Positions 24,391 through 63,852 of a DNA stretch of 64,000 nucleotides are shown piece after piece. The notes beneath the pieces were generated by a model that was given only the letters and a program-made list of their open reading frames with translations, was not told the DNA's origin and ran no database searches. A program made the position numbers and the translations under genes. How positions within the stretch are numbered: the first letter of the stretch is position 1; every line of letters begins with the position of its first letter. The stretch is from Amphiscolops sp. MND2022 (taxonomy: Eukaryota), in NCBI GenBank assembly GCA_964187785.1, contig OZ076411.1:31124001-31188000 (forward strand), in the 5' to 3' direction.

Positions 24391-24539
24391 GTATGTAGTT
24401 ACTTTTGGTCAAAGATATTTATCTGAACATATAAAAAATATAAACCGTAGTCGATTAGCTGCATGGACATTTTCACATCCAGTGACGTAAGGTCAACTTA
24501 TCATCTCAAGCATTGACTAACATTCGATTTGCATTTCAG
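24391..24539 (+). other. Predicted spliceosomal intron (149 nt, phase 0)
   Basis: Donor GTATGT, branch TGACTAAC at 24514-24521, acceptor TTTGCATTTCAG. Joins DFNWTKERLT to VLFHHMFL. Confidence 0.7.
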
Positions 24540-25232: not shown

Positions 25233-25410
25233 GTAATGCCCACAATTAATCACTTGTGATCTAAGAGAATCTTTAGAAGTACATACATGTAGACAATGGG
25301 ACTAGCATAGTATTCATTTCTCCTAACCTCATAAGCTGCACGCTCTACATGTATTCGTTGATCTAGTCTCTCATACTCAAGGTATTATATGGATTTCGTT
25401 GTTGTTATAG
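25233..25410 (+). other. Predicted spliceosomal intron (178 nt, phase 0)
   Basis: CAG|GTAATG donor and TTGTTGTTATAG acceptor. Joins LQGIRKQ to VQSLDWF. Confidence 0.6.
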
Positions 25411-26758
25411 GTACAAAGTTTGGACTGGTTCATGGTTTACGACGAGTACTTCCCAACTCGCCTAGAGATCTTTCACCGCTTGGTCCAAGATTACACCACT
25501 AGTTTTACTTTAAACTTGAAACAGCGCCGCGACCGAGGGTTCAATGTGTTCCGGGAGCTAAACCAGTTCCTCTTCAAAGTGGGATGCACCTCTTCAAAGG
25601 GAGGAGATGTATTCGCCCAAGCTGTCTTCTTGCAGAAAACGACAATCGGAGAATCCTTAATCTTTCTGTCCCTGATGTCAAAGCCTTAGGAGTGAGTAAC
25701 CTCCTGTCTCCTTCTAAGCTGGACACGACTTGACTTGGCTTGTAAGGCTACAGCAGAGGCGGAAAAGAGTGAGAGGAAAAACGAAGGTCTCACTTTGGAG
25801 GAGGTCTCTAAGAAGTACAAAAAACAATTTGCCAGAACCGCCCACAGCTATGTCATTTTCCTGTTCAAAGGGACGCAGGGGCCAAGTCGCTTCACGTCAG
25901 ATATTGTTAAAGGGCTTGGCTCATTTGATCTGGATGTCATGCTTGTATATCCTTTAAAAAATGCAGCGAATTGTTTTAAACAACTGGACTCCACACCGAG
26001 GACTATATGTCATTCCTTGACGTCCTTCGGCAAGCACACCCAGGGGTAAAACAGCCGAAACTTCTAACTGCAGACTCTATCGAATTCGTTTCTAGCCAAG
26101 AGGCCCTCGGGGTTAGACCACATCTAAACCGGAAATTCCGCTGGAGTTGTCTTTGTCTCGACGAGCCTCGGTTGTCTTTTTCCTCTGTTAAATTCGGATC
26201 CCATCGGACTGTCGATCCCCTTAGCCCGTTACTCGTGGACTAGATGTGCTCACTTCGGAACTTTCTGTAGCTCAATTCCTGTCCTTAGAACAGTCGTTTG
26301 GAGATGCTGGCCTCACTGACGTCTACAGCGCCTGGGACAGCGTCAACCAATTTGGCAGAGAGAAGATTAGAGAAGCCTTAGATCATAGCGGATCAAACAG
26401 CAAACAACGATGCTGTCCCCGAGTCCAATGTGCCTGAAGGGAGTACTGCCTTGAACTCTTTTCTTGTGCCTAAGCCAAACAAACGCCGGAGTTATTTATT
26501 GTCTGAGGATGAATTGACTGCATCTGCCACACGACTAATTGCCGGAAGCAGCAAAGACTAATTGTACTATATGTACAATTGTAATCCAAACATCAATTCG
26601 TAAATACTGTTTTTGTCTATTTGTTGTTTGCTATTATTTTCAGATAAAATCAAGAGACAGAGAGGTTCCTCATAAAAGACATAACTGAGAGTTGGGACCA
26701 TAAATAACATCTCTGACTAGTATCTGGGTTCATCAGTGACGTTGGGGTTGGGGTTAGG

Positions 26759-29700: not shown

Positions 29701-31193
29701 CCATGTTTTCGGCGGCGTCAGTCAAGGTACTGACCGAATGATTGTTGTGAATGTAGTCGTCGGAGATCAAGTTGTTAAATTTCTGCAAATCGACTAAGAG
29801 TCGCAATTTACCGTTTGGTTTCTTTCGGGCAAACATTGGGCTTCCATACTTGGATAACGGGATTGTTGTTATAATCCCATACCGATGGAGAAAGGCCAAT
29901 TCTACAAGGAAGTCCTCTTTGAGAATGATCGACGTCGGTAGGTTTTGACTGTAGGCCGAAGAATTGTCATTTAGCGGTAATATCACTTTGAGTTCTTCGT
30001 TCATGCCAATGTCGAAGCGATGCTTGGCAAAGGTGTCATGAAATTCGACAAGTAGGTCTTCGATGCGAGTAATTTCGTCTTGTTGGAGCATAGAGTCCGT
30101 TCAGTCGAAGTTGCCTAAGAATTCTTGTCAAGACTCATAGTTGTTCTGTGGATTAGGTTTTTCAAGTTCTTAAAGGTTGCGCATTTCGGACAAAATTCGT
30201 TTTTGAATTGGTGTGTGATGCTGAGGATCCCCAAGGTCTTCAGGTGTTTTTCTTGAAGTCTTCAGGTTTCGTGGATTTGATTAAGCTACTTCAGGTCTTC
30301 AGTAGTTTTTCTTGAAGTCTTCAGGTTTCGTGGATTTGATTAAGCTACTTGCGTAATGAGCAGCATTCTCAGGATTATCTTGCAATAGGTGCCACGTGGT
30401 CACCGGATCAATAAGTTTAACATATTGCATCTGTTCCGCGGTCAAGACAGTGAAATTTGCAACTTGCGTACCTCTTTTGAGAGTGTATGGGGTGTCGGTG
30501 AAATTGTTCAGATGAACATCGCCTTGACCTTTGATCAAAGTGACTAGAGCAGCACAAAAAACTATACAAAAAACAACATCGCCATCATCGGTGAGTGTGT
30601 TGCTCGGTTGAAGTATGCCAGTAACTGCAGTGTCTTCATACAGTTGTGAGGCCATAAGGACTAGATGTCGATCATTAGGTGGGATGGTGACATCCTCCCT
30701 AATGCAGATGGGTTCCAAGACGTTGGTGTACTTGTGATCCGCTGTTTGCAACTGCATAGAGACAAACGGAGAAATTTAGAACACCTTGCCGCATGTCCAG
30801 AATGGTGCTATTCCATTGGAGGAATGAAAGGCCAATCAATGGACTAGTGAGTTTTTCCATAACTATGAATTTTTCATGGAAATCTATGTCTCCGACTTCA
30901 AACTTCAGCTCGACTGTGCTCTTCGGAGTTTCCAGCTGCCCATTAGCAACCATGATTTCGAAGTTGGGTGCCGGGACCTCTTTGACAAATGTCTGAGGAG
31001 CTAGTAATCGGATTGTACGTAGATCGGCTTCTGGGATTGCGCTGGAAAAAGCTCCCGTGTCTACAAGTCCATCTAAAGTTAGTTCGCCGAAACCCATTGG
31101 AAAATAGAGCATGCGTCGCTTATATTTGAGGCCAAGATTGGTCGTCATTGGTACATAGTCTGTTTCCTCTGTTCTAGTGACTAGGGTGTTCAC
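26759..31193 (-). pseudogene. pol: Gypsy pol (protease, RT, RNase H, integrase), heavily disrupted
   Basis: LVDTGAFSSAI; KLDCSQAYH; RVDDI; LMTDASLSATGYAVL; HGEASKHPG...CEIC; MQIDILPNL. Split into more than 8 ORF pieces. Confidence 0.92.
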
Positions 31194-31449
31194 AAAACCT
31201 GCTGCAACGGCTGTTGCCAGGGAGACCTGTGATCCCCAACGGTGAAACTCGTTGTCATCGTTACGATGAGTCCGTTGATGAGTAAGTTGTTGGCTGTGTT
31301 GTCATTGGTCAACTTGAGCGTTTGCAAAGACGGTATTCAGAGCTTGGTATATTTCGTAAGAATCCGGCTCTATGTCCTGATCTGGTTTGGTATAGTTGTT
31401 GTAAAAGTGTAGATGATATTGATTATAGGTATTAGCGTCCCAGTAGGGG

Positions 31450-33023
31450 TCAAAACCATAGCCAGTTTCGGGGTAATAGTTGATTGAGTTCTTCAAGGAA
31501 ATCAGGCAGTTTCATGGTGTTTGGATCAAACACCAGTCTGTGACTTTTGTGTTTGGCGGTCGCTTGGGACTCCGGTTTGACGCATTTCCTGCGAAATACG
31601 GCCAAGATGACCTCCAATGTCTGCCTGTTTGCCGTATTGATATTACGGAAAGTTTGTATATCATTTTTCCGTAACAATGAGTGAAAATGGTTTGTCGTCA
31701 ATTAGAGCTATAAATCGTATACTGATAGCATCGGTTTGTAGTCTCTTGGACGTAGGGTCCAAAGTAGTGGAAAAAGTCGGTGGAAATGACATCTGCTGCT
31801 GCCAGTCAGCTGATGGTGTTTCTTTAAGTGATGTGTAATGTTCAGCGTAGTATATGTTGGAAAGGTCAGAAATTATACACTGTCTAACTCGAAGTAATTC
31901 AATGATTTGGAGTCGTGGCAAATCTAGTTTTTTGGGTTTTTCAGAATGGAAGTTGTTTGTTTATTAGTGGCGTCGTTGTGACTTGTGGACGCTTCATCAG
32001 TTTTAGAAACCTCTAGTTTGAGGTTTTTAGGTTTGAGGTGGGCTCCAGCGCCTTTCCAACAAAGTTCCACCGGTTGGTTTCTTCTTTTTTACAAGTCGGA
32101 CACTTTGGATACTCTTTTTTGGTATTCTGGCCGTCATTGCGTTTCTGTTCTTCTTTCCGTTTGAGTTTACGACATTCGTCTTTTGTATAACCCGGTTTTT
32201 TGCAATTAGTTGCAAGTTATTCCTGGGTCGACGCCCTTGAAAAGAAGTCCTGTTTTTGATCGTGTTGCTGACGGTGCCGTTGACATTGTTGGTACAGGAA
32301 TGTCGTCACCCTCCTCAATCTGTTCAATTCTAATTCTCTTTCTAAATGAGCAACTATTTCTTCAAAGGTTTCGTTTCCGAGTCTAGCAATATTGACTGAG
32401 CGTTTCAGTTTTGGCGGCAGTTTGGCATAGAGGAGGCTGTTAACCATTGTCTGGGCGTTTTTCCCAAACGCTTTTTCAGCTCCTTGATTGAGTTCTTCGA
32501 GGAAATCAAGCAGTTTCATGGTATTTGGATCAAACACCAGTCTGTGACTTTTGTGTTTGGCGGTCACTTGGGACTCGGGTTTGACGCATTTCCAATGTCT
32601 GCATGTTTGCCGTGTTGATATTAGGAAAGTTTGTAGATCATTTTTCCGTAACAATGAGTGAAAATGGTTTATTTTCATTGCTTCGGTCATATCAGGCTGC
32701 ATTTTGATCATTGTGTGAGAGAGATATTCAAAAAATTCAAATTTCACCGATTTGCCGTCAAACGTCAGTGTAGTCGTGCTGACTGGGCGTACCATTAGGG
32801 TTTGCGCTGATGGACGGTTTGTCATGCCGACCAATACTGCAGCAAGACGGTTAATCGGGTCTGGCGGGGTAGTATGGTTTGTAGTCTCAAGGACTGGAGG
32901 GACAGTGTCCTGAGACTCGTCATTGACGGAATCTTGGCGTTGCAGGGGTTCACGGGATTGCATGGGCCGTCCAGTGAGGAACTCAGGAACCGTATGTGGT
33001 GTAGGCTTGGCTCCTGTCACCAT
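31450..33023 (-). pseudogene. gag: gag (MVTGAKPTPH...), disrupted, with an internally duplicated segment
   Basis: ORF 32217-33023. The NHFHSLLRKND...DFLEELNQ block recurs at about 31490-31700. Confidence 0.8.
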
Positions 33024-34536
33024 GTCGCGATTTTTTCGCCTGTGTAAGTGTCTATTGAACTCTTTCTACACATTCGTCTACGTTTTTCTTGTGTGAAACA
33101 CGTTTTGGGCAATTTTCCCACGTTTGATGAATATTTTCAACTTCGGGGTTCCGTTGTAGCCCACCGGCCTTTCGGTCCATCATGGTTAAATTAGTCGCTC
33201 TTGGGCTCTCTTGTAGCCCAGAGGACCCCCGGTCCACCATGGTGTAATTAGCTCTCCCCTGCGTTTCTACCGTATTTTGGATAGAAGGGAGTACTTTCTC
33301 AGCTATCGCTGTGGTAATTTCGTCTTGTATCTGAGAATTGAAACTAGATTTGATCTCATTGAGTTCCCTGGAAATTTGATTAGCAATTTCATTCCCAGTC
33401 ATTCTAGTAGTCTCTATGATCATTTCTCTTATCTCTCTACTGTTTGTATTTAGTAGTGATCTGATATCCTCTCCTGTTAGATCAGAGTTTTGTTGTGGCC
33501 TATTGGAGACCAAATTTAGTTCATTTTCACACTAATCATTCCTCTCCTCTCATCCCTCGAATGACTGCCTAACATTATATCAACGTTTTTCACATCGGAC
33601 AACAGGTTCAACTGACTAGAACGTCTTTTGTTAGCTCGTTGCTTTCTGGTGGACGGCATATGGAAACTTGAAGTTTTCAAGAGTCAATTAACAGAACAAC
33701 GTAGGGTAACAAAGAGAGAAGGTATTGAGCAAGTTTATCACGAATCAGTATCTCAAATTGTATGTTTCAACATTGAATTCACTTATCTCCCTTCGGACTG
33801 AAAGTCACTGCTATTTATACTTAATACTGCCTGACTAGCTAAAATTAGGGTGTCATGTTATTATAAATAAGTATTGCTTGTTCCCGTTTGCCTGACATTG
33901 CCTGACATTTAAATGCTGTCATGAACGATTTGTCAGTTAAAATACTATTACGGACTTAAAGTCCACATGGCTACAGCACAGTATACATAAGCATTAGAGT
34001 GAAATTAAATAATACCACGGCGGACTCACGGTCCGCGTGGCTACAGTAAATGTATATTAGTACTGCGCTGTGATTGGCTGTTACTACGTTGGACCGCGTG
34101 TACAGCTAGCTACAGGAAACGATCATTTGAACTCGTTTCCTGCTTTGTGCTTACTTGTACGTTTTAGTTTAAACATTGAATCGCATTAAAGTCCAGCAAT
34201 TATACAATCCTGATTAATACTGCTTTATCTTAATAATCTACCAAATACAAAGAGGTTTTTCAAACCATGATGGGTAAACACATAAAATAATATTTTGAAA
34301 GCAATTTGCAAGCCGAATGACTCATGAATTAGATATAAAAGTTTGTTGTAGCTAAATCCACTAATGGTCTCTTATGGTTAAATGAACTTTAATTTAGTAG
34401 TGAGTTGAACTGGTTGTAGACTGTTGTCCTCAGGGTCTATTACGGTTCATATGGGTCATACTTCATGCGGTGGGTTAGGTGCGTTGTTTCCTGCCGGTAT
34501 TTGGTAGAAAACCGTCACAGGCGGCAGCCTGCGACA
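33023..34536 (-). repeat. 5' LTR (1514 bp)
   Basis: Collinear with 18985-20443 plus an extra internal repeat unit of about 55 bp; followed directly by the PBS. Confidence 0.92.
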
Positions 34537-44600: not shown

Positions 44601-44681
44601 TGACATTTGGTTTTGGAATGAAACGGTTTACTTCGCAGAGTATGACGTTTTCAAGGATTTAACATGGAACAATGTTTTCAG

Positions 44682-45163
44682 CGTACATTATATCAGCCCA
44701 GTCGTTCTCTATCATTGGCATCCTGTTGTCTATTGCCTACATGGTATTGACTATCATGTATGTGGGGGATGTGCTGAGAAACAAACACATCGGGCGTATT
44801 CTTGCAATTGTGGGCGCGGGCTGTCAACTAGGACACGGAGGAGTTCTCATGATCAGCGTGCCCCCTATGCTCAGTGGGGCCATAGCCGACGCCCCAGCAG
44901 GAGAACCTGTGACGGTTCAGTGGAGTTACTACATGGGGTATGCAGATGCATTTCTTTGTCTGGCTTCAGGAGGACTTTCTCTGGTCGCAGGTTTGATCGG
45001 TGACAGATTTGGTATCAAAAAAGACAAAGCAGTGGAAGAGGAAAAGAAGAAAGCGGCCAAGAAACAGCAGAAGAAAGAAAAAGTTGCCAAGCAGCAGAAA
45101 AAAGTTCCGGGCAAAGAGCATCAAACCAAATATGAAGAACCCACCGAAATTGTTGACATGTAG
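44682..45163 (+). CDS. Host claudin/PMP22/EMP-like gene, last exon (TM2-TM4 and a Lys-rich tail)
   Basis: TTTTCAG acceptor at 44675-44681. Three hydrophobic segments, WSYYMG before TM4, KKEK-rich tail, stop at 45161-45163. Confidence 0.75.
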
Positions 45164-48895: not shown

Positions 48896-49736
48896 ACACT
48901 TGCTTATCGCAAGTGTAATAAACTTGCGTAAAAACTACAAGTAAGCCAAAATGGCATTAAAAATTGGGTTATGGTAAACGCAATTTCATCCGCTCCCTGG
49001 TAATGACCCGAGAAATATCGGCTTCAAATGTTTTTTCAATGCTTTTAGCCATAAAAGCTATTTACTCGAAACGCTTTGATCCTTACAGGTACTAAAAGGA
49101 CTTGTTCATACGCTATGAATATAAGGTCATCAAAACAAGGCTGTTGGAGAGCCTCACCTAGTCAAGACACAGGGATGACCAAAAAAAACGAACGTTTCGT
49201 ACTCACAATCAGCATTGTTCCGGCGAAAAAACATAACTTTTTCGAATCAAAAACTAGGCAAGAATGTAGCTCAGAGTCTTTCCAAATTTTCTACGCAAAA
49301 CCAAACCGCGACCTGAAATAGGCCTTCATAGAAAAAATTTTGCCAGATGTCACGAAAAAATTTCTCAAAGCTTCCTCCAATGTGAACATCTAAAAGTCGC
49401 GATTACTAAAAGTTACTGTCTGGTAGTCGATGGAACTAAACGATTGAGCTGCTTATTGTTACAATTTATAGAAATCACTCCGAAGACACTTCGTCGACCG
49501 AAAAATGGCACCTTCAGGGCTCAGTAAAATTTCTGTCAATACAAAACAAATTTCAAAAACTATCATATTCACACAAGTTGCACCGGATAAAAACTCCGTC
49601 TAGATGTACAGCTTTCAATCCAGGCAGATTTCTCAGAACAATTATAATTTCTGAATAGTGCATAATGTGCAAACCTAATGTTTCACTAATAGTGCATAAT
49701 GTTTCACTAAAAGCATAGAAAAATTTGGAGCATATG

Positions 49737-50068
49737 AGTCCTGTATTGTCTTTTAGAGACTTAGTGATGACTTCTCAGCTGTTTAGCAGTCTTGACAGAG
49801 CGGATCATCGGATGCTGTGAGCAACAATCCTGGTGAGTTTCCTTAGTCTTCAAAACCAAGCTGATTTATACTTCAATTATAGTTCTTATGATTTTGTTAT
49901 TCAGTAATTCCAATCATTATGTATGAAGGTTATTTAAATGTCAAATTCCGATTTGAAGAATAAACATTGAATGTCATTTAAAAGTTAAGTATTTGAAAGG
50001 TTGAAAGAATCAGTCCAAGTATGTGAAAGTTCGTCCTCTCTCAACTGGAGTTGTTTCAGTATGGTACA
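49737..50068 (-). repeat. 3' LTR (332 bp)
   Basis: No difference from 62880-63211 found by eye; directly preceded by the PPT. Confidence 0.95.
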
Positions 50069-50376
50069 CTACCTCCCTTCGAAACACTTCCGGTCCTGTG
50101 AAGAACCATCATACGGATGGAGATAGTGACAACTTCAAGTGAAGATTCCAATTGAGAATAAAAGAATATCCAAAGAAATTGTCCAGTGAGAAGAGAATAT
50201 CCAAATGAAATAGGAGGAAGAAAGCCAGCACAAGTATCCAAAAGCCCAGAGGAATATATGTCGATAATCCATTTTTTGTTTTTAAGGCAAGCCCAAAAAT
50301 ACTGCATTGAATGTTTACAGAAATTATAAATGAAGTCCAGTTTTATGATTAGAAAGAAAACATGAAAAACGGGAAG

Positions 50377-52737
50377 TCAAGCTGATGTGGATGATTCCAT
50401 TTGAGTTTGGGTGACCAAGTTGCCAAAGCCGTTAGCGCGTTGCAGCGGTGAACTGCCGGGATAATTCCCGGGAAAATGGTTTGCCTCATTAGGACCGAAG
50501 GAACTGAACATTTTTGGATTCGGTTTTGTATGAAAAGATATATCCACGGCATCAGATGTTTTGCTTGAAGATGCACACTGAAAATGATAACGGTCACCAT
50601 GTTTGGATTGAAGTGACGGTATTTTGTTTTCGTGTTCTGTAGGGACATCTACCATTTGACGAAGCGGCAGTTTTCGTTTCAAATCATCGAAGATCTTGGG
50701 AACACGAGTTGCCAAATTGTAGCGGTGATAAATGTACATGAATAACAGGTGAAGAGCCGTTGAAAAGACGAAGACAGTCAGTGTGAGCATGAACGATACC
50801 TTGAAGGGTACATACTGATTGAATTCTTTAACAAGGGACGGCTTTAACAATTTCATATTTGATGCGAAAGGTCGCGCAATTTCCACAAGATGCTTGACTT
50901 CTCGTGGCTTCGGGCCTCTAGCAAGTTCCGTTTAAACTTGTTTCAACAACTTCACTCCTGCTTCGGTTCGGCTATTGAAAAGAGGGAGATCGTCCAATGG
51001 CGGCACTTCCATAATCAATGACTGTAGGGGATTCGGAAGAGAGACTTCCAATTTGATCGCTGGTACCTGTGTACAGCTCGATAAATCTGAACGAATTTTG
51101 ATATTTGGTGTGATAATTTGCATCCCGCATTCTAACGTAATCAGGCAGATGTGACAGCCTGGAAAAGATGTTGTTTTTGTAGAGGCTGATGATGCCATTG
51201 ATTCCCGAAAATTGAACTTGTTGCTTGCTGACGTGATAAGCCAAATGCCGAAGCCAAGATTCGTAGCTTGTTCGATTGTCGGTAAGTTAATAATTTTAGT
51301 GTCACATACTGAAAGAGCTTCCATGGGCGATTCGAAATATAAGGTGGCCAGACAAGACGAATGTCCTATCTCTGTCGGAATAGTCTCGGAACAGATTCGG
51401 TATCGTGAAGAGCCGAGGCATCGATCAACTTGACTAGCCGACAGTGGCGAAGATTCCATAAGATTTTCCGAGATTGCTAAGAAGGGAACTTCAATATCCC
51501 ACATTAAAGCAGACTCTGAATCATCTGGGAAAGGCATCGGAATAAGTTTTGCTTCAAAGAGGCTGAATACTGTTTGCCGTGACGCGAGAGGAATGTTGAG
51601 GGTTAACAGTAAACCTTCAGAGACAGTAACCGCATCGGCAAGCAGACGCGAATCGTAATAAGATAAGAGATCAGACATCGGGATGGCCAACGAAAGGCGA
51701 TCGCCGGCATTAGCCCTATCTCTAACTACACTCTCCAATATCACCAGTAGCGAATCGAGCGGTACTAAGGACATCGGGACGTGTCCCCGCAAAAGGACAG
51801 GTATAGAGTTTAAAACATTTATGCGAAAGGCAAATAGAGCTGCGCGGAAACTTTTGACACTTGCATGGATCATCGAAAGTAAGGACGACAAAGTGTCGAA
51901 GTTGAAATTTAATTGCTGGTTAGAGAAAAGCATTTGATCGCAATCGCGCAAAGCATGGAAATTTTTTTCAAAAACTGCAAATTGTTGTTCGATCAGCGCC
52001 CAATTTTTATTCTGAGTGGCAATCATGTCGGCTTGTATGTCGTTGATAGCAGCAAGTTCATTTTCGATTAGAAAAAATTTGTTTTCGGTACTACTCGAGA
52101 ATTCGGTGACGTATTGAGATAGGATATCTTGGAAATCGGAGAGGCGTCGAATATTCTCGGCATTCGCTTTGGACTGGTCCTGGCAAGTTCCGAAAATTCC
52201 TTGTAGACCGCACGAGCCAGAACTTCCCAAAGCAACGCCACCACCGAAAAGTCCTACAGCGGCAAGTGCTACCGCACCAGCACTAGCACCACGTTTTTGG
52301 CGGGATGGTCGCTGAGGAGATGGCGGAGAAAGAAAGGCCGAAGTTTCATTTCGTAAAAGTATCACATCGTTCGCGGCCTCGTTGATTTCATGATTTATTT
52401 GTACAAGAATCCAATTAACGTTGAATGAAGTCGAATTGGAATCGAAGTTGGTAGAAAAATTAAGAGGACAAAAGAGCGAAGGCAAGTCCCACATCGAGCC
52501 AAGACGGTCGATCGTTCGTTCGATGTCATGTTTCAAAGCAAAATCGTAAGTCGGAAAAGGAATCATAAATTCCACTGGAACGATCTTTTCGGCCAACAAG
52601 ATTTTGCCACGCTCGTGAAATAGGATGCCTTTTTCTAATAATTCATCATGATTGTTTGACGGTTGCAAATTGGAATCCCATTCAAGTCGAACTGAAGCCG
52701 GAGTGAAGAGTAAAAGAAAGACAAGTTGTAGAAGCAT
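50377..52737 (-). pseudogene. env: env-like class I fusion glycoprotein (about 786 aa), interrupted by one in-frame TAA
   Basis: ATG at 52737 with signal peptide MLLQLVFLLLFTPAS. Furin site RQKR at 52302-52291, followed by the Gly/Ala-rich fusion peptide GASAGAVALAAVGLFGGGVALG. Heptad-like helix, Cys-rich region, TM SFMLTLTVFVFSTALHLLFMYIY. ORFs 50932-52974 and 50377-50886 share a frame across TAA 50934-50932. Confidence 0.88.
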
Positions 52738-53071
52738 TACTGTGCGAGCATCCGGAAAGACGAAATGTGACGAGAGTAATTTTCTTTTTGGCGACGACAA
52801 CGACAGTAGCCCAATGGGCGTCGTTTCGGACAAAGCGAAAGATGTCAAATATGGTATTTTGGACCGGAATGTTAACAAAAGCCTCTGATGGAATTTTTCG
52901 GCAAACAAAGTGAAAGAAACGTAAACAGTGTGATGAAACGACGAGCGAAAAGTAGGCCTTGGAATGTTGGCCAACGAAAGTATTTAAGGTGGTATTTGCC
53001 CTTGTTTGACAATTGGCGGTGTGTTTGAGCTCGTACTTCCGATAGCATCTGCGGAATGTTTCGACTAGGCG

Positions 53072-53156
53072 GTAAGCCTTAGTAAGGTCAAGTTTTTGCG
53101 TAGATCAGAAAACATGGACCGATGACCTCAAACAGAAATTGGCTTTTTTTTCTCAG
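53072..53156 (+). other. Predicted 5'-UTR intron of the antisense transcript (85 nt)
   Basis: GCG|GTAAGC donor and TTTTTTTTCTCAG acceptor, 25 nt upstream of ATG 53182. Confidence 0.5.
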
Positions 53157-53181
53157 TTGTAATCGAGCATTTCAGCAAAAA

Positions 53182-53514
53182 ATGAAGATTTTGTTAATTT
53201 GTTGTGCCCTGTGGATCATAAATGGCAATGTGAAAGCATGCGAAGTGCGGCTGTGGAGGGGCCAAGAAATTTTCTGTTATCCGAATGGGACAGCTTTTGG
53301 AACTGGAGCCAGCCGAATTTGGGTGAGCCAGAAGCCCCTGCTCTGCTCAGTAAAGAAAGAGCATGGACAAAAGCAAGGCCGAAATGGTTGGATGATAGCA
53401 GGCATCATTATTTCTGTCGCCGGCTTTATGTTTTGTATGTGTCAGTGTTGCTATGCATACTTGGGCAAGAGGTTGCTGTGCAGTAACCAAGAAAATGACC
53501 AACCACAAAACTAA
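53182..53514 (+). CDS. Antisense small type-I membrane protein (110 aa)
   Basis: AAAAATG start, signal peptide MKILLICCALWIINGNVKA, Cys-containing ectodomain of about 50 aa with an NGT sequon, TM WMIAGIIISVAGFMF, juxtamembrane CMCQCC. AATAAA at 53721. Confidence 0.7.
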   Translation: MKILLICCALWIINGNVKACEVRLWRGQEIFCYPNGTAFGTGASRIWVSQKPLLCSVKKEHGQKQGRNGWMIAGIIISVAGFMFCMCQCCYAYLGKRLLCSNQENDQPQN

Positions 53515-53748
53515 GTTACGACAATTGTGAAACTGTTGGTGCCTTAGCAAAGGCACATTCGTCGCTTTTGTTTTTGTGTTAGGTACTGCTGTGTACTAAA
53601 AGTTTACTGTACTGTAGTTGTGGACTGAAAAGCGCAGATACTTTTAGATAATTTAACTCTTCTTGGCGTTGTGGTTAAACACAGTACTGTTGACATAGAA
53701 AACTAGTGAGAACAAAAGAGAATAAACGTCGTTGTATTCCAGAGAACT

Positions 53749-54901
53749 ATGGAACCTTGCATATATACTGCTCTCTGTAATGATAGATCAACCAATGTGA
53801 CTAAAAATCTAGGACTGAGTAAAAGAGAAAAAGAAAAATGGGACAAAAGGCTCAAGCAGTTTGGAAGCGCTGATGGACAACTGTTCTGGCAGGGCAAAAA
53901 GGTACCCACGGTGCAGCAATTAGATGAGGTCTTGCGGCCGATACATCAGTCTGCAGGTGGGAAGCACTGCAAAAGCGTAAACATTCTGTGTAAAGCTGTT
54001 AGTGGTACAAACTTCGCGCTACCGCCGTTCCTGGGCGGTATAGAACGGGCATGTACATTGTAAGTAGAAATACAACACCATATACATTCAGAAAATAGTC
54101 CGCTTTTTTTGGGAAAGTATCGGAAGTGCTTTTTTTGTGAAGGTTTCTGCGTGATTGTCCCGAATGCTTTTGGACCTTTCAAGCGGGCAGTCATTGGGAA
54201 CAAGCGACGGCTGTATCAGAGGCAGCGAGAAAGGCGTTATGTGACTCCCTCCAATTGGAACACGTAAAAATTCCCGACAAGTATTTCTCAATTGGGTTAT
54301 TAGGCTTGGGTATGCCAGGCATTATGGGCTGCTCGAGTAAATTGGCCGAGGGCGGCGGCAAATGTTGGTTTTCAACAATTTTCTACTTGCTAGTGGGAAA
54401 GAAGAGCGGTAAGTGGCGAACAAAATCAAAATTATATAGATTTGGAGGAAAGTGCAGTGGAAAATGCGTTTCAGACAAAAAAAGGAACGCCTCCGATTTA
54501 AATCGGATCCGAGACGCTATTGCCAATCGAATGAAGCAAGAGGATTTTGAATCGTTATGCCTCGGAGTTCTCAAATACACAACAAACCCATGGGAAATTG
54601 AAAGCGTAAGGACCTCGAAACAGGCCGTTTCAGAGCCATGGGTGAGTAGAAGAAAAAAGGAAATACCGTCAGTATTGGGATACATGTTTTGTTGTGTTGA
54701 CAGATGTTAGGAACTGCCATGCTACTAGGCTGTGATATTCTGGTCTTCTGGCAGTATGAAAGGAGAGGTGGTTGGATTAGGTACCCCGCAGCCAACAGAG
54801 GGGCGGCAACACGGGAAGCCTTTCTGATTCACTGTGTCCATTCCGAGAAATACCACATGTTCCACTGTGAACCGATAATTGACTGGCCTATTGAGGAGTA
54901 A
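53749..54901 (+). CDS. Antisense three-exon gene (53749-54059, 54143-54641, 54704-54901; 335 aa): HHCC zinc-finger-like domain plus OTU-like cysteine protease
   Basis: Introns 54060-54142 (GTAAGT...TTTTTTTGTGAAG) and 54642-54703 (GTGAGT...TGTTGACAG) give a stop-free 1008-nt CDS. Splicing completes H-x6-H...CPEC. OTU-like motifs GGGKCWFSTIFYLLVG, IRDAIANRM, W-MLGTAMLLGCDILVF and FHCEP. AATAAA at 55058. Confidence 0.8.
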
Positions 54902-55504
54902 GTAGGAAAGTCAAAAATGAGATTTTTTTGGAAAATAGGGGTCAATGTAACTGAAAGACATGCTTATAGGAAGGAAAAGGCTTATAAGAGGCCGTACGAG
55001 TCGCAGAGTAAGGCGGCCAAGAATGCCCGACCGAGATGGGTGTAAAATCTGCAAAGAAATAAATGAACAATCATCAATATCACCTCAAATTTCATGCAAT
55101 AAGCTGGAATCAGTCTCAGAGAATTTGAATCAGTGGAAAGGGACGTTCATAATAGGAGGCGCAAAAGCGCAAAACTAGGCAGAAGCGTCAAAGCCATCGC
55201 AAAAAGAAGCTTTCGGCGGAGATGCATGAAAAATGAGCCAATCGCACAAGGGCGCCGTAGGGCCACAAAAAATAATTTTTTGTCTTGTATTTGCAAATGG
55301 GGGGCCCCAAACGGGCGAGCGCAAAATTTTAGGAGGCGACACTACAAAACTAGGGGCAATTTGACCTTTTGACCTTGAATTTTTGACAGTAAAAGGTTGA
55401 ATCAGGAAGAGTGAAAAGTACGTGGAAGAAAGAAGCCGAACTCATAAAAAATTAGAGTAGGAAAGAGTTTTCTGAGGGCGAACTAGGCTGCACAAGAGCG
55501 CTCC

Positions 55505-55950
55505 TCATCGAGAGGTTTGAATAATGTTGATAGTAATAATTATATCAGAAAAAACTTGATATAAAAGTGCTAAAACTGTAGGCCAATGTAATCGATCATA
55601 GCCAGAGCCAAGTCTTGGAATGCTAATTTCGTTGATATTGTTGTTGAGAATGTGCTGTTTTAGTGCAAGCAAGCTCAATTGAAGCGTGTCGTACGTAGGC
55701 TTGTGGAAAAAACGTCTTTTTGTAACTAAGTTATAGACAAATCGATTGCGCGATGCGTCATAGTAAGCGACCAGTGTTCCAGGAGGAACGCATTTGGATG
55801 AGTAAAATCTCATCTGTTGAAGGGCTGGATAACAGCATGCAATGATAGATGCAAGCCCTTTCCGCATAGCAAAATCGGAGGAGACGCAATGTGCTATAGA
55901 GTTGGGAGAATCTAAAATGTTGCCGGAAGAAAACCGAAAAATAGGTGTAA
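55505..55950 (-). CDS. TARG1/OARD1-like macrodomain at the C-terminus of pol
   Basis: GNIL...SIAHCVSSDFAMRKGLA, RFVYNLVTKRRFFHKPTYDTLQLSL and ISIPRLGSGYDRLHW align with the OARD1 motifs [42 protein letters not shown] and LSMPRIGCGLDRLQW (recalled). Confidence 0.9.
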
Positions 55951-58900
55951 CTGTTGAATCAATAAGCGAGTTTACGTTATTAGGATTAGACTGCGAGGAA
56001 AGTCGCTTTTTTAAATGGCGAAAGCCGTAACGAGAACGGATTTCACGTTGGTCTGCTAAAATTTGCTGCGGACTACGAGATGGTTGTTCCTTAGGTTGCG
56101 CGGAAATACCCGAACTCTGGGTTGGAGTCGAAACAAGTTGCCTACTTCTTTCACACGATTCAAGAATGTTTTGTCGTTTAGTAATTTGATTTGGCTGAGG
56201 GCGGCTGGACGAAGAACTGCCAGCGTCTGGTTGTGGCGAAGATCGGAGAAACCCAAAATTCAGTTGGTTCGAACGCTCTTGTGAACGTATAGCTCGCTCT
56301 GTCTGTCGAAGAATAAATTCATTTGGAGCAGGACGCGGTGGAACTTCATGTTGATTCGATTGTGGGGGACCCGCGTCCTCGTGAGAGGAATCATCCGAGG
56401 TGTCAGGAGTCATGCGAGGGCTAGTAAGAGGTACCGGTCCCTCAGGTATGACGGGATCCGGAGGTACCACATGTCCACCAACCGGAGGAAGTGGCGCAAC
56501 CGGTATGACCGGAGCGGGTGCCATCGGTAGGGGAAACGTCAAGCCGACCGTTACAGGAGGGATATCCTGCTCCTCAGATAGTCCTGGCATCTCCTGCGGG
56601 GGAGGATCAAGTAAGCTCGGAATTGCTTCGTCAAAGAGTTGCGGTTCGCCTCGAAATCGCCCTAAATGCGGGTCTCGACGGAAGTCATCAGGGTTAATAT
56701 CACTCAAATCATCAACTGATATTGAGGCGAAACTGTGCGCAAACGTATTCGATGAACACATTGGGTAAAATTCGTGCCAACTTTACGGATGATATAATTT
56801 GAATTCGTTAGAACTGACTCAACACGATATAACGGTAGCCAAATTGGTAAAAATTTACTCGAAAAGTCTGATTGCGTCATCAATTTAGGATTTAAAAGTA
56901 AGCAATAAGAGAATTTAGGCAACGGTTGAGCGTCAGCCTTGTAATCGTAGTACGCGCGATATTTATTGTACATGATAGTAAGTCGTTGTTTCGTGTCGTC
57001 GAACTTTTTCAGCATAGCATCTTGCAATGTTTGAACATATTCATTGGTAGGTTCAAGGCGTTCTAAGGTCGTGTTGCCAAAGCGGACGTCCAATGGTTTG
57101 ATTGGCTGACGTCCATGAAAGATGACAGTCGGGCTACAGCCTATAGCGAAATGATACGAAGTATTGTGGATGAATGTAGCCAAAGATACATACTTGTGCC
57201 AATCATTCCATTGCTCGTTCGTGTTCAATTTCAAAATACGCTTTAAGGCACTATGTGACCGTTCCACTACACCAACTGTCTGCGGGTGTTTTAGACTAGC
57301 ATGTTCAAGACAAATTTCGAGCATTTTTGTAAGTTCGTGCATCAGTTCCGAAACAAAGGCTGTTCCAAGATCAGAGAGAATTTTTGACGGCATATAGCTA
57401 TGTTGGAAAAATATGGTCGTGAGTGCACGAGCGACATTATCAGCGCGACCATTTGTCAGCGGTATCGCAAAGAGATATTTACTGAAAACATCTACTGCTG
57501 TGAGAACGTACGTGTACATTGGTGATTTCAAAGGACCCACCAAATCAATTTGTAGCATATCACCGGGATAGGATTGCAAAGACGAAACCGGTTGTAACGG
57601 CATTTTGATTTGTTTCGTAGGTGCACGTTTCAATTGTAAGCATTGTAAACAATTTCGAACCGTAGATACCAAAAATTCTGTGAAATTAGGAAAATAAAAC
57701 CGTTTTCTAAATTCCTCTATCGTTTTGACAATTCCCAAATGACCTGCGGTGCGGGAATGATGCAGGCGGTAGACAACTTCCCGCCATAAAGATTTTGGTA
57801 CGCAATACTGTTTATGTTTGATTTTTCAACAATCATCGAAAAATAGCCTGTACAAAACATTGTCTTCCACAACAAGACGGTCAAATTGTTTTCGGTATTT
57901 TCGAAGAGCAATTGGTAGATTAGGCGAGGCGTCGACGTGGCCTCGGGATTTCCATAAGAGCACTTCTTGGATAGTTTCGTCAAGAGATTGTTCGTTTGCT
58001 AGATCTAAAGGTTGTGTTCGATTCGGTAAGTCATCAAGAACATCATGAAATTCATTAGTGGCGATTAGGTTGATTTGCCTAATCGGCAAGAAGGACATCA
58101 GTCCAGTAACCACTAGTTCATTAGGATCATTTGCTAAAGTGGCGTTTGCTAAGTATTGTTCATATAGGCCATGTGCTTGGAGTTGAGAAATGAAATTTGC
58201 GTCTACTGTTAGCTGAGAAGTACTTGAAAAAGGAATCATTTCGTCAATATTTGAAAGCGAAACGTTAGGAGTTTTTGCTTCAGTTTCTACTTCGATTTCT
58301 CGAATAGGTACCCGATCAGTCAGTTTGATTGATAAGCAAAGACTAGGGTCAGTTTGCATGCGGGACAAAAAGTCCGCAGCTGAATTAGCTTTGCCAGGAA
58401 TGTGCGCAATTAGAATATTAAAGGACAGAACACGGTCGAGACAGTTCCATAATGACGGATGTATACTTTTTGATTGAAAAAACTGAGTTAAACTACGATT
58501 ATCCGTTAGGACTAAGGCAAGAAATTCCTTATAATAGACTGAAAATTTCAATTGCGTATCATTGAAGAGTCGAGAACCAAAGGAGACGGGCGCGTATGAT
58601 TTCTTTTGTTGTCCTGTTTGGTCTATTAAGTAGTCCTCAATCATCAGAACGAAACCTGTACCGTGATAACTTGCGTCACAAAGCAAAACATATTGTAAAC
58701 CTGGTTTTGGAAGGCGGAGTGTTAAGTTAGTCGCATTTATCAAATCCATTTTCAAAGCTTCGAGCGCGTCCGTGTGAGCATTACTAATGATAAATTCAGT
58801 GTCTTTGCGGAGAAGTTTATAGAAAGGTAAAAGTTTTTGATTCAAGTCAGGGATAAAATTTCTGAAAAATTGAACAAAACCAATGAGACGTTTAACTTGA

Positions 58901-60885
58901 CGTACAGTATCAGGCATTCGAATTTTGTCCAAAAATTTCTTGATTTTGTCGGACTCTGGAGTGATCCCTGCAGGCGTGATTGTATTGCCTAGGTAGTCGA
59001 TTTTTGTAGTTCCAAACTCACATTTGTGAGCAGAAAGTTTAAGACCTGATGCTCTAAGACAGTCAAAGATTTTTGTCAAAGTAGGAATAAGTTCATCAAA
59101 ACATGTTACTCCTGCGGCAATGTCGTCCATAAATTGGGTACAAACATTGGCCGCTAAGCATTTATCCAAATAGTGTTTGATGAAAGAACTAAACCCCGTG
59201 ACGGATTTATTAAGACCTTGTGCTAGGCAATTATAGGCAAATGTTCGCGAACCAAAATTAAATGCTAGCAATTGAACCGAAAGGTCATCAGCCATTTGAA
59301 CGCAATGATAGGCCTGCGAACAATCTAGCTTACAAAAGAGTTGTTTGCCCGCGAAATGGTTGGTAGCATCAGTCATATTGGAAATTGGAAAATTGCTGTT
59401 CAAATAATCATGCCTCAAAAGATGATTAACGCGACGAAGATCTATGAGTAGGCGTAATTGTCCTGATGGTTTGCGGTGAGCAAATATTGGACTACTGTAC
59501 TTTGAATGCGAGAGTGTTGTTATTATATTGTAATATTGAAGTAATGCTAGCTCAATCAAAATTTCATCACGCAGATGAATTGGCGCCGGCGGACCTTGTA
59601 CATAAACAGGAAGTGGATTTGATGGCGTTAACTTGACCTTAAGTTCAGTATTATAACCAACATCGAAACGATGTTTAGCAAATACATCATGGTATTCGAT
59701 CAGAAATTCTTCTAATTTTTGTTTTTGGTCAGCGGTCAACACACAAGAATCCCATGTGAACTTTTTCAAAAATGCGTCCCTGTCATCAGGATTAACTTTC
59801 GGATTCATCTTTTCTAAGCGTTGGAACTGCAAAATTTGGTCATAGATATCTCGTTGCAATGATGTTAAGTCTGACAAATCGGAGCACGTTTCTGGCGTGG
59901 GAAACCATAGTTTTTCATAATTCGGCGGAGGTCTGCCAGTGAGAGTGTCATGCTTTTTAAAATGAACATCATGAATAAGTTGATTTAATTCATTTTCAAA
60001 ATTGTCAGGATTGCGTAGTTTTGCAAGCGAAATAAGTTGAGGATCAATTTCCGCAAGATGTTCCGCTTGAGATTCTGTCAAAATTTCAAAATATCCCACA
60101 ATTGTTTTATTACTAAGAGTAATTTGGTGGTCGCACAGATTGAGCGCTGACACGTAAAGTTTGTTATTGTCCAATTTACTCAGAGAAGATGTTAAAGCAA
60201 GATGGGGTTTGTCCTCAATATTCTCATTGGGAACTACAATACCCGTACAATTCTTCAGGTAAGCATATTGGTCATCCAATTGACATTCAAGGAGTTTTTG
60301 CGATTGCGGGCTAAGATGAACTTTATTCGTTAACAAAATCGGTATTCGCTTGATTTTTGTTGTCAGTGTGCGTTTTTTGCCTCGTTTAGCGGAAATTTCG
60401 TTCAATTGAACTGTGAGATCAGGCAATTTCAACAAATTGTTTGTGGGGTCAATAGTTATATGAAATTTCTTGAAAAAAGTATTTCCCAAGATGACACTAT
60501 TCATCGTAGGAAGAATCAGAAAGCTATCAGTAAAAAAATGCGGACCAATAGAAAACGAAATTTTTGCCTGTTTATCGATCACAATTTTCTGGCCAGATGC
60601 CATCCGGACCGATGTAAAGCTAGGCGTTTCCAGTATGATCCCGTTAGGATTCTGTTTTTCTAACTCGTCAAACAGGTTTTGTGGCAAAGCGTTTGCGCAT
60701 GATCCTGTATCTATAAGAGCTCTACGTTTAGTTAATGACGAAAATTTAAGTCTGACGTAACTAAGATTTTCACCTTCCAAAGGTAAAATGGCGCACAATG
60801 CATCTAGTTTTTCATGAGATTGTAAGTCGTTATTACATGTGTCGGGCTTGTTTATGGGCTCTGGTTGCTTGTGCGGCGTATTTAG
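55505..60885 (-). pseudogene. pol: pol: protease, RT, RNase H, integrase, Pro-rich linker, macrodomain; three lesions
   Basis: LIDTGSCANAL; LDCSQAYH; FMDD; LCDASY; HHSRTAGH...CLQC; QIDLVGP; SDLG; VVERSH. In-frame TGA at 57828-57826, a 1-nt deletion near 56715, and an apparent in-frame RNase H deletion near 58513. Confidence 0.93.
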
Positions 60886-62167
60886 TTTTTTTGATACTGA
60901 TTAAAGGGCATCTGGGCACCTCGTCGCGGTGCGGGACCCACCACTGTACAATTAGGTGCCAGATGGTTCGGATAGCCGCACTTATGACACGTAACACTAC
61001 TTTGCTGAGTGTACGGCATATAGTTAGGATCCGGCGTAAACACTTCAAATGTGGGCTGTTGTGTATCCACATTAGGTGTAGGGAACGAAGGTTGTCCCTG
61101 ATTAGCGACAGTATTTTGCCAGGATTGATTATTGAAATTTTGGTAATTTGGTTATATGATTGGTAACGTGGTCGCTGACCCCATGGTTGACGTTGAAAAT
61201 TTGAGCGATTGCCGCGGTAACCTCTGCCATTGTTTCCGCGGTAGCGTCCACGATAACCGCCGCGGTAACCACGATTTTGAGAATTTTGACCGCGTGAGTT
61301 ACCAAAAGAGCCGCGTTGAGATTGTGAATTTTGATTATGGGAAACATTCTCTGTTTGTAGTTTCTGAACATTTTCAAGTTGATTAGAGAGTGCATTATTA
61401 CGCTCTTCAAACTTTTTCGACATTTCGTTCAGACGGTTGTCAAGAGCTTCTTGACTTGTACTAAGTTTAGTGAGCGCGGTTACCAAGGTATCTGTTACTG
61501 TCGGTCCGATTTTACTAAAGGCGTCCATCGGAGAATCGTCAATTTTGCATAAATTATGAATCGTTAATTGTTTCCTCGCAAAAATACAAAGATCCTCCAC
61601 AGATGTGGTTTCCGGTTGTTCAAGTAGTTTCGCCCTTAGCCAACCTGGCATATTTTTTATAAATTGTCGTCGTATCTGTATAGAACGTGCTTCTTGAGCA
61701 GATCGAAGCTGCTCTGCATTACGGGCAGTTTCTTGGTCAAAACGTGTTTGTTCAACCGCTGCATCCGGTGCAGCTCCGTCTATTGGTGCGACCGGAACTA
61801 AAGTTGGATCAGGATACGCCTTCAAAGCTTTAGTTTGCAAAGTGACCAAAAAATTCTCAGGAGTATCCGTTTTCGAATCGAACTTTAAATTTTCTAAGTT
61901 AAGTACATGTAGCTCTTGTAAGTGCGGATTACAGAACCTATCGCGTAAAGCAGTCAAAGATAGATCGAGGTCAGCCCGTGTGGCATCCGGTAGAGTTTGA
62001 AAAAATCGAAGCGCAGCATCTCGAAGATGTAATTGTAAAAAATTTGCTTGTTGGGCGTTTGCAATACCAGCCACTGCCAAATAGCTTCTCAAAAGATGTT
62101 CAAATTCACGGAAACTTTCTTTCTCTCGCCCGGAGTAAGGTTTCAGTTGTATTTGTGCTTGAGCCAT
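60882..62167 (-). pseudogene. gag: gag (capsid, Arg/Gly/Asn-rich region, CCHC knuckle), with one 1-nt deletion near 61150
   Basis: MAQAQIQLKPYSG...LQLHLRDAALRFF. The knuckle CHKCGYPNHLAPNC lies in the -1 frame (60882-61070); adding one A in AACCAAATTACC restores NQNYQNFNNQSW. Confidence 0.9.
60885..60891 (-). promoter_or_regulatory. -1 ribosomal frameshift slippery heptamer A AAA AAC at the gag/pol junction
   Basis: CAA AAA AAC TAA ends the knuckle-containing gag frame. The -1 frame is open from here (LNTPHKQPEP...) into the protease without stops. Confidence 0.8.
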
Positions 62168-62879
62168 ATCTATTCAGTGACGGAGCGAGCACGAGTACGG
62201 AAACTTTGAAGACGAATTTGAAAGAAAACAGTGTGTGTTCGAAAGAGCCGAATAAGTTACTGAAAATATAGGCAAAAAGCGATTGTTTAATAGGTCAAAG
62301 AAAACGAAAGTTAAGACAGAAAGACGCAGAGAAAAATTTCCGAAAACTCGTTGATTGAAAGAATGAAACAACCCATAGAAAAGGGTCTAAAATAAGCTGA
62401 GAGAATAAAGAGCCTAGAAGAATTAAGAAGCGTTAGGGTTGAGCAATGAAAATGAACATGAATGAATTCGACAGTTATGAAACATCGTATCAATTTACTG
62501 CATCAAATTGGCTTGCACTTACCATTTTCACGTCTGTTATCCAAACGAATAGTTGTATTCAGAAAATCCAGTCTTGTCTCGTTACATCTAAGTCATCAAG
62601 TCTGCTTGAAAGTCATACCCATCCAAGTTGTTGATGTGATGAAATCTCCAGTAGTTGTGCGAAATCCACTTTTTGGAAGAAAAATTTATAGTGTAAGATG
62701 AAGTTTTTTTGAAGTTCTGTTAGTCTTCAGAGATACTGCCGTCGAGTATACTGTTTCAGGGATGCAGTCCTGTGGAGTTGCAGTGGTCGTCTGGGCGTGG
62801 CCTGTGCTATGTTTCCTCACGAAAAAGATAAGTAGTTCGAGGAAAGATTGCAATTGGATCGTTTTCCTTCCTGTCACCA

Positions 62880-63211
62880 AGTCCTGTATTGTCTTTTAGA
62901 GACTTAGTGATGACTTCTCAGCTGTTTAGCAGTCTTGACAGAGCGGATCATCGGATGCTGTGAGCAACAATCCTGGTGAGTTTCCTTAGTCTTCAAAACC
63001 AAGCTGATTTATACTTCAATTATAGTTCTTATGATTTTGTTATTCAGTAATTCCAATCATTATGTATGAAGGTTATTTAAATGTCAAATTCCGATTTGAA
63101 GAATAAACATTGAATGTCATTTAAAAGTTAAGTATTTGAAAGGTTGAAAGAATCAGTCCAAGTATGTGAAAGTTCGTCCTCTCTCAACTGGAGTTGTTTC
63201 AGTATGGTACA
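62880..63211 (-). repeat. 5' LTR (332 bp), with a TATAAAT candidate at 63013-63007
   Basis: Identical to the 3' LTR and directly followed by the PBS. Confidence 0.95.
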
Positions 63212-63852
63212 ATATGCTTTGTTGCTTGAATAAAAAAGAAAGATTTGCCTTTGAATGAAAAAAGCGATAATGGTCTTTTAACTGCATGTACCACTCTGGT
63301 TCGAAATAATTGGAAGCGAACGATACAATTTTCAATTTTATATAAAAGTCTTGAAAGTATCAATGTTTTATATTTCAATCACAAAAGATTGGGAGCTGAA
63401 ACGTTATAAACCAAAAATGTTTTGAACTACGACATCATTCAACAAGTCGTCGGCGTCCCGCTTCAGGCTCAGAAAGGGGAAGCCTTTTGAATATTCTCAA
63501 GTACAATTATTGAAAAAACCGTCATCAATTTCCAAAACCAAAAATACGCAAATGCAAAAAATGCCCCCTATTTTTGAGGGTCGAAAACGCTGTTATCCAA
63601 CTGAAAACATCGAAAACCTCTAAGAAGCTTTGTGTGAGATGAAAAAAATGTTCGAAAAAAGTAACATAATGCCAAAAATTCAAAGATCGTTTTGAAAACA
63701 CAAAAAAACGGATCTACGTTCTGCTTGCGTATAGCACGCACCCTTAGGCGAAGTAGCGGGACAAAAATGAAGAAACGACGAAGTTTAGAGAATTTATGGT
63801 ATTTATTAGTCCGTGGTCTTCAAAAAAGTCACTAAAAAGAGTGCAGAGTAAA

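Follow-up and report, generated by a model that had tools for sequence, protein, structure and literature searches.

We analyzed a 64,000-nt stretch of the genome of Amphiscolops sp. MND2022 (contig OZ076411.1, positions 31,124,001 to 31,188,000 of the forward strand), here called the window, in which positions 49737-63211 on the minus strand are an env-bearing Ty3/Gypsy long terminal repeat (LTR) retrotransposon with the gene order gag-pol-env. Its Pol polyprotein terminates in a TARG1-like macrodomain, and a cassette of two antisense genes lies between pol and env, one encoding a protein with a modeled OTU fold and the other a small membrane protein. Both antisense genes are under purifying selection, yet ancient alleles of them sit on near-identical backbones, and a related OTU gene is carried in antisense by BEL/Pao elements, an unrelated superfamily. 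In the reading we favor, the window holds a recent, already damaged copy from a family of F-type env-bearing Ty3/Gypsy elements, in a clade with accessory erasers of protein marks. A counter-defense role of the cargo, which is known here from its sequence, is plausible, and we give it a probability of about 50%.

The antisense OTU gene

The OTU-like gene runs on the plus strand, antisense to the element, and its predicted gene model has four exons, 313 codons, and three GT-AG introns. An earlier first-pass annotation of the window had proposed an OTU-like protease; the OTU fold stands, and the gene consists of the four exons, not of one open reading frame (ORF). We compared 70 loci, 30 of them the best of at least 151 matches and 40 hand-picked from lower ranks, with near-duplicates among them. 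Exact GT..AG pairs were found at the three projected junctions in 60/64, 51/65, and 65/66 scorable loci, and the junctions are conserved though the intron interiors cannot be aligned between loci. The catalytic Cys is retained in 66 of 67 loci and the His in 62 of 64.

We modeled the fold from a cassette-only alignment with the introns retained as loops (predicted local distance difference test score of 72). In a VIA search with the model, the first 24 of 50 rows were OTU-family proteins (Z scores of 9.5 to 6.2; best root mean square deviation of 3.0 over 122 residues), and nairovirus OTUs were among the structural matches near the top. All 33 rows listed by Foldseek against PDB were OTU-family proteins or deubiquitinases, none of them at an E value of 0.001. 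On this model, the antisense gene encodes an OTU-fold protein. The cassette profile also reached P0218, a canonical OTU protein without introns that is recognized by Pfam (E value of 3.7e-4 for the profile and 2e-7 for Pfam; hhalign probability of 96.5%). Judging from its sequence, this nearest outside homologue looks like the C-terminus of a Ginger1-type transposase.

In the N-terminal region, two His residues and a CxxC motif are invariant in the alignments, and a YP motif is visible in the BEL versions described below. Residues 2-108 matched the N-termini of foamy-virus and Ty3 integrases in VIA with Z scores of 5.7 and 5.2, which are under the tool's noise level of 8, and Pfam and PDB sequence searches with exon 1 alone returned nothing significant. 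There is no rve match in the antisense gene; the DDE core and the GPY/F motif are absent because a gene of 313 codons leaves no room for them.

As described in the text of Bao, Kapitonov, and Jurka (2010; PMC2836005), Ginger1 transposases combine YPYY, H2C2, DDE, GPY/F, and OTU with introns, and OTU domains are known from Ginger1 and Helitrons. The antisense gene resembles Ginger1 of that description in its C-terminal OTU domain and its GT-AG introns, and perhaps in its N-terminus, which is probably of the integrase type with a putative H2C2 finger. It differs in being an accessory gene inside LTR elements and in having no DDE core, GPY/F, terminal inverted repeats, or CCGG-type target site duplication (TSD). 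We infer that it descends from a Ginger1-type transposase that lost the DDE core and kept the N-terminal zinc domain and the OTU domain. A live Ginger1 nested in the LTR element was rejected; the window's cassette has neither a TSD-plus-terminus motif of the Ginger type nor a long inverted repeat.

We likewise rejected a viral origin of the OTU gene, in view of its transposase-like look and spliceosomal-type introns, and with it a source of the toolkit in RNA viruses. Nairovirus L OTU and viral macrodomains have the same folds, but identity to them is just 9-15%, there is no sign of descent, and the macrodomain here is of the TARG1 type. Against predicted viral structures, the OTU model found nothing at an E value of 0.001.

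A related gene in BEL/Pao elements

A scan of the genome with the Pfam OTU model gave nine matches, through which we arrived at an ORF free of introns. This full-length homologue shares the N-terminus of the cassette gene and has a canonical OTU domain, which scores over the PF02338 cut-off (27.2 versus 23.3 bits). It belongs to a 7-kb BEL/Pao element with the Pfam domains DUF1759, Peptidase_A17, and DUF5641, in which it is placed in antisense, behind the integrase and ahead of the 3' LTR. LTR pairs of 307-311 bp, 95-98% alike, were present in 4/4 copies, and 5-bp TSDs were present in both copies checked. The related BEL OTU protein has at least 111 matches, and in the best 20 loci it stands tail-to-tail with a BEL integrase without exception, with no env, macrodomain, or membrane protein match within 3.7 kb. 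When the Gypsy cassette profile was aligned to the BEL family, hhalign gave a probability of 97.1% over 251 columns and 22.8 bits, versus at most 6.1 bits for shuffled controls. The copy counts for the Gypsy cassette (at least 151) and for BEL (at least 111) are lower bounds.

What the two superfamilies share is the OTU gene alone, not the full set of three genes. One case of an OTU swap is seen within a BEL backbone, where the integrases of L175/L185 and L187 are 98% identical and their OTU proteins 55%. The Gypsy cassette profile, run against 1.84 billion representatives, returned 103 matches, nearly all of them exon-sized fragments, homologue searches with the BEL protein returned 5 and 7 matches, and no BEL OTU match was found among metagenome contigs; these searches reach close relatives only.

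Other OTU-bearing frames were met in the same genome. L157 (G000:C13:25885000-25894900) holds at 217-6948 (-) a 2,244-aa Helitron Rep/helicase frame with an N-terminal OTU domain, an arrangement already known. L141 (G000:C1676) has a GC-rich OTU-containing frame at 280-1815 (-) on a small contig whose composition is unlike that of the host and which is perhaps another organism's. Adjoining a BEL element, L145 carries a transposase fragment at 39-425 (+), which we take to be CENP-B/Tigger-like.

Old cassette alleles on young backbones

In 68 of the 70 loci the OTU gene and the macrodomain face each other tail-to-tail, and a membrane protein match is present in 56; the gene content is therefore a trait of the clade. 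The possibility that the cargo is private to the studied copy, which would have undercut the first-pass annotation, was rejected, as the cargo genes are present in other copies. The window's own cassette recurs at 99% in just one other copy among the 48 matches listed. When 12 copies were compared in 500-bp bins, identity outside the cassette was mostly 90-99% in 11 of them, while their cassettes either could not be aligned or were 64-76% identical. The boundaries of exchange coincide in all 10 copies with both flanks, at 52721-52977 on the env side and 55497-55530 on the macrodomain side.

We estimated the rates of nonsynonymous (dN) and synonymous (dS) substitution in 20 hand-picked pairs. 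For the OTU gene, dN/dS is about 0.05-0.25 in the 11 pairs with a finite dS, and dS is saturated in the other 9, while the macrodomain dS is 0.03-0.6 in many of the same pairs. A quick cassette tree without bootstrap was made from 61 rows, 9 of the 70 being dropped as incomplete. Family A, defined as the rows whose macrodomain is at least 78% identical to that of the window, has 17 rows that hold 11 cassette lineages; the cassette tree requires four label changes for them, at least three of which are forced by its starred branches. Pieces of the cassette were also seen in tandem: in L161, macrodomain-OTU-env fragments are repeated about three times, and in L159, exon 1-exon 2 is repeated three times.

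Macrodomain, membrane protein, and env

The final 148 residues of pol align to human TARG1 with an E value of 2.1e-24. The TK motif is kept in 51 and the GxDxL motif in 57 of 61 loci, and the aligned Lys and Asp, which we take to be the TARG1 catalytic pair, are retained. Integrase and macrodomain share one frame in 5/16 stretches from sister copies, and a macrodomain match was seen in 6 of 120 listed public pol homologues. The first-pass annotation had placed a TARG1-like macrodomain at the C-terminus of pol and counted it as a part of the cassette; the domain is confirmed, and as the end of pol it is on the sense strand and does not belong to the antisense cargo.

The second antisense gene encodes, as proposed, a small type I membrane protein, with a predicted signal peptide, a four-Cys beta ectodomain with an N-glycosylation sequon, and one transmembrane helix. 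Its 25 alleles align to the window's at 18-44%, with the four Cys conserved. Pfam and PDB sequence searches assigned it to no family, and fold searches yielded only a helix. The Atlas suggestions (US6, DUF2650, CYYR1, and ORF7a) reach at most 0.85 and are mutually discordant, and we treat them as leads only. Allele identities of the membrane protein and OTU genes correlate with a Mantel coefficient of 0.42, whereas each of the two genes correlates with the macrodomain at 0.59. Strict pairing of the two genes was rejected, since L061 and L081 share OTU proteins at 97% identity and membrane proteins at no more than 50%. The two genes reassort separately.

The third ORF, env, has a signal peptide, a furin site, a fusion peptide, a transmembrane anchor, and an F-like ectodomain. 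The three top Atlas clusters are all paramyxovirus Fusion_gly (0.96, 0.94, and 0.94), with a recognition value under the tool's mark of 2300, in line with the fusogen proposed in the first-pass annotation. Env frames in the loci compared are about 780 residues long, with a furin site in 29/30 loci and a transmembrane anchor in most. Neither Pfam nor PDB sequence searches matched env, and viral contigs gave no hit in a search that reaches close relatives only. An F-like env is an already known kind. Some copies of family A are mosaic in env too: in L022, env is 72-79% identical while the macrodomain is near 90%, and L102 and L103 have a different env cytoplasmic tail.

Structure and integrity of the element

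The features of the element are collected in Table 1. They agree with the first-pass annotation in that 332-bp LTRs without mismatches, the TSD ATATG, a primer-binding site (PBS), and a short purine tract delimit one element, and in that gag, pol, env, and two antisense genes are present in it.

Table 1. Features of the studied retrotransposon (positions in the window)
Feature	Position	Strand	Basis
5' LTR	62880..63211	-	332 bp, 0 mismatches to 3' LTR
3' LTR	49737..50068	-	332 bp, 0 mismatches to 5' LTR
TSD ATATG, 5 bp	left 49732..49736, right 63212..63216	.	ATATG on both sides
PBS, tRNA-Leu(CAG)-type	62869..62879	-	directly after 5' LTR
Polypurine tract, short	50069..50080	-	precedes 3' LTR
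gag, frameshifted in this copy	60833..62173	-	position; 92-99% matches in sister copies
Zinc-knuckle-like motif, in a frame overlapping gag	60882-61151	-	seen in translation
pol: protease, reverse transcriptase, RNase H (gap in RNase H; ends at in-frame stop)	57826..60900	-	Pfam (protease below cut-off)
pol: integrase (H2C2, rve)	56704..57825	-	Pfam
Pro/Ser-rich linker, integrase to macrodomain	55952..56782	-	integrase and macrodomain in one frame in 5/16 stretches from sister copies
TARG1-like macrodomain, C-terminus of pol	55505..55951	-	E value of 2.1e-24
Noncoding spacer, with the OTU and pol stops converging on it	54902..55504	.	locus comparison
OTU gene, exon 1: probable integrase N-terminal region, two invariant His	53749..54059	+	alignments, fold comparison
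OTU gene, exon 2: CxxC, linker helix, OTU Cys box	54143..54408	+	alignments
OTU gene, exon 3: OTU helical lobe	54475..54641	+	alignment, fold model
OTU gene, exon 4: OTU beta lobe with His-x-Glu	54704..54901	+	alignment, fold model
110-aa type I membrane protein gene (antisense)	53182..53514	+	predicted signal peptide, ectodomain, transmembrane helix
env: paramyxovirus-F-like class I fusogen (furin site, fusion peptide, transmembrane anchor), interrupted by stop	50377..52734	-	Atlas ranking, motifs

The LTR termini are TG...CT, as fixed by the TSD position, and the PBS can pair over 11 nt with the 3' terminus of a tRNA-Leu(CAG) from the host genome, which ARAGORN called at one of four loci. 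Motifs of the tRNA-Leu 3' end also form a dense tandem array with a spacing of ~240-300 nt at G000:C8:35587798-35638169, and the pattern has 887 matches genome-wide. Pfam recognizes a reverse transcriptase, an RNase H, and an integrase (H2C2 and rve) in the Gypsy-type order of protease, reverse transcriptase, RNase H, and integrase; the protease scored only below the cut-off, and the reverse transcriptase scored nearly equally as Ty3 (5e-19) and as foamy virus (1e-18). Gag had no match in the Pfam scan. The spacer between the OTU and pol stops is 589-647 nt long in 35/38 alleles, though its sequence is unalignable. Within it, a 43-nt motif with a short palindrome (55250-55293) is also retained in the nearest allele group, and 91-95% matches to it occur at many genomic sites, often paired ~8 kb apart as if they were LTRs of another element.

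The studied copy is a recent insertion that is or became defective. It has a gag frameshift near 61.15 kb, a gap of ~56 nt in RNase H near 58.5 kb, an in-frame stop ahead of the integrase near 57.83 kb, a frameshift in the integrase/linker region near 56.7 kb, and an in-frame stop in env near 50.93 kb, upstream of the membrane anchor; some of the single-base indels may be assembly errors. Unlike this copy with its five breaks, sister copies do include some with long open env and pol frames.

Elsewhere in the window, a second, decayed Gypsy element occupies 18995-34510 on the minus strand, with LTR-like repeats 85-92% alike and ~14 kb apart. Its reverse transcriptase and integrase are ~33% identical to those of the studied element, and no env, macrodomain, or cassette match was found in it. 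A 166-aa ORF at 44663-45163 (+), with hydrophobic segments and a Lys-rich tail, is possibly a host claudin-like exon, as we presume from the resemblance. Gag/pol frame fragments of other retroelements lie at 319-3036 (-) and 9809-12237 (-), and reverse transcriptase motif repeats, presumably Copia-like, lie near 17367 and 18033.

Relation to known elements

F-type env Ty3/Gypsy elements are widespread in invertebrates, where they have been described as "ancient errantiviruses" (Chary and Hayashi 2026, PMC13524379, main text), and the rotifer TelKA clade (PMC5408684) and the Oikopleura Tor elements (PMC4402516, PMC4977317) are precedents in the texts cited. The elements of PMC13524379, as its main text presents them, share with ours the gag-pol-env order, LTRs, a tRNA PBS, an F-like env with a furin site and a fusion peptide, and multiple similar copies. 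The studied element departs from that account in having a macrodomain on Pol and in the ~2.8 kb that separate pol from env and hold two antisense genes; the terms "macro," "OTU," and "antisense" are all absent from that main text. The first filter given there allowed a pol-env gap of at most 1,000 nt and a total of 10 kb, and such a survey would therefore tend to miss the layout studied here.

Capture of a macrodomain by an LTR element has a parallel in fish epsilon-like endogenous retroviruses with extra macro-domain ORFs (Basta 2009, as cited in PMC4977317); those are vertebrate retroviruses, and the citing text mentions neither an OTU domain nor a spliced gene in antisense. Bdelloid LTR retrotransposons (Rodriguez et al. 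2017, PMC5408684) are similar in that one accessory ORF type occurs in unrelated lineages and in having small transmembrane ORFs. Their ORFs, however, encode GDSL esterases, DEDDy nucleases, and transmembrane proteins, and "OTU," "macro," and "intron" do not appear in the text available. PMC4245714, PMC7729036, and bioRxiv 2021.11.30.470311 do not speak, in their accessible text, of TARG1 or OTU in retroelements. The full-text literature searched, a body outside which Repbase, Dfam, GyDB, and most subscription journals fall, gave no report of an LTR element that carries an OTU gene in antisense. The separate parts thus have precedents, and their arrangement is without a matching description in that literature.

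Possible counter-defense and its alternatives

In the mechanism we favor, the OTU gene would be expressed from its own antisense transcript to give an active deubiquitinase, the antisense orientation keeping its expression separate from gag-pol-env. The introns would survive reverse transcription because they are antisense to the genomic RNA and hence would stay unspliced in it. The zinc domain may aim the OTU protein at chromatin, DNA, or the integration complex, and the protein would remove ubiquitin marks that the host uses to silence or degrade the element. The macrodomain would travel with integrase and remove ADP-ribose. Alleles would change backbone via template switching in co-packaged RNAs, and old ones would persist because rare alleles escape host defense, be it by sequence-specific small RNAs or by protein recognition. 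Taken as a whole, with ubiquitin marks stripped by OTU, ADP-ribosylation reversed by the macrodomain, alleles shuffled by template switching, and rarity as protection, this scheme seems to us evenly balanced between right and wrong. More tentatively, and with less than even confidence, we consider that the transposase-derived, spliced antisense deubiquitinase may be an anti-silencing module exchanged across two LTR superfamilies, with ancient alleles balanced by host conflict. In the Gypsy clade it would be accompanied by an eraser of ADP-ribose fused to Pol, a surface glycoprotein that is hypervariable, and a functional fusogen, and the whole would be an invertebrate analogue of a complex retrovirus with accessory genes. 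The element may be infectious.

Several of our results weigh against this interpretation. The cassette OTU has no Pfam (PF02338) or PDB sequence match, with exons and read-throughs alike, and in its Cys box a Gly takes the place of the Asp of canonical OTUs. The likeness of the N-terminus to integrase is moderate by the Z scores given above, and hhalign gave 1.2% directly to Gypsy integrase N-termini and 59% only via the BEL version. Poly(A) signals are not enriched after the OTU stop (15/38 versus 20.1 expected). As dN exceeds dS in none of the 20 hand-picked pairs, an arms race at the protein level is not directly indicated. The allele history is read from a quick tree that has no bootstrap, and L059 does not count as an independent cross-family transfer because its macrodomain is nested within family A, where it has a long branch. 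Macrodomain and OTU are not always together, either: the distant env-bearing Gypsy elements L158 and L159 have OTU and no macrodomain match. With these, with the BEL/Pao OTU that has neither env nor macrodomain, and with the reassortment of the two antisense genes, the toolkit is not a single fixed unit.

The cargo may instead help integration, with OTU and macrodomain acting, where the element inserts, on the ubiquitin and ADP-ribose signals of DNA repair so that insertion is completed; we think this possible but unlikely. Both enzymes reverse DNA-damage marks, the macrodomain is fused to integrase and the OTU protein has an integrase-like N-terminus, purifying selection is strong, and such a role has been proposed for the OTU/Ulp1 domains of Ginger1 (PMC2836005, in the text available). 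Left unexplained are the replacement of the OTU gene alone by ancient alleles, on Gypsy and BEL backbones, and the hypervariable membrane protein. The alleles could also form a neutral mosaic, in which backbones sweep repeatedly, the cassette is recombined from older resident copies, and rare alleles have no advantage. It is true that retroelements recombine readily, that the env variant of L022 and the env-tail variants of L102/L103 were swapped as well in a few copies, and that no pair has dN above dS. We nevertheless judge this rather improbable, for the same two breakpoints (the macrodomain stop and the env leader) recur in 10/10 copies with both flanks, template switching into unalignable sequence should be rare, and swaps of this gene also occur in a superfamily unrelated to Gypsy.

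The cif and wtf systems are poison-antidote systems to compare with two linked, highly polymorphic genes for a surface protein and a cysteine protease. Such a pair could serve recognition between elements, as allele-specific exclusion or as poison and antidote, and the identities of the two genes do correlate (Mantel 0.42). That correlation is lower than the one of each gene with the macrodomain (0.59), however, L061 and L081 combine OTU proteins 97% identical with membrane proteins at most 50% identical, and BEL elements have the OTU gene and no membrane protein match; we find this explanation very unlikely. We give hardly any credence to a nested, passively carried DNA-transposon remnant. 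The transposase-like architecture and the introns would suit it, but purifying selection with saturated synonymous sites and conserved splice sites largely refute it, and the cargo keeps a fixed position across the whole clade and, in the window, shows no Ginger-type TSD/terminus motif.

The counter-defense reading matters since very little has been described of LTR retrotransposons in animals whose accessory genes encode enzymes directed against control by the host. A candidate gene kept by more than 100 copies in each of two superfamilies makes a direct assay possible. Its antisense orientation may be a route by which an intron-bearing DNA-transposon gene persists inside a retroelement, and the pattern of old alleles on young backbones offers a natural test of balancing selection on transposons. 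Counter-defense by such a cargo would suggest that invertebrates actively use ubiquitin and ADP-ribose in their defense against transposons.

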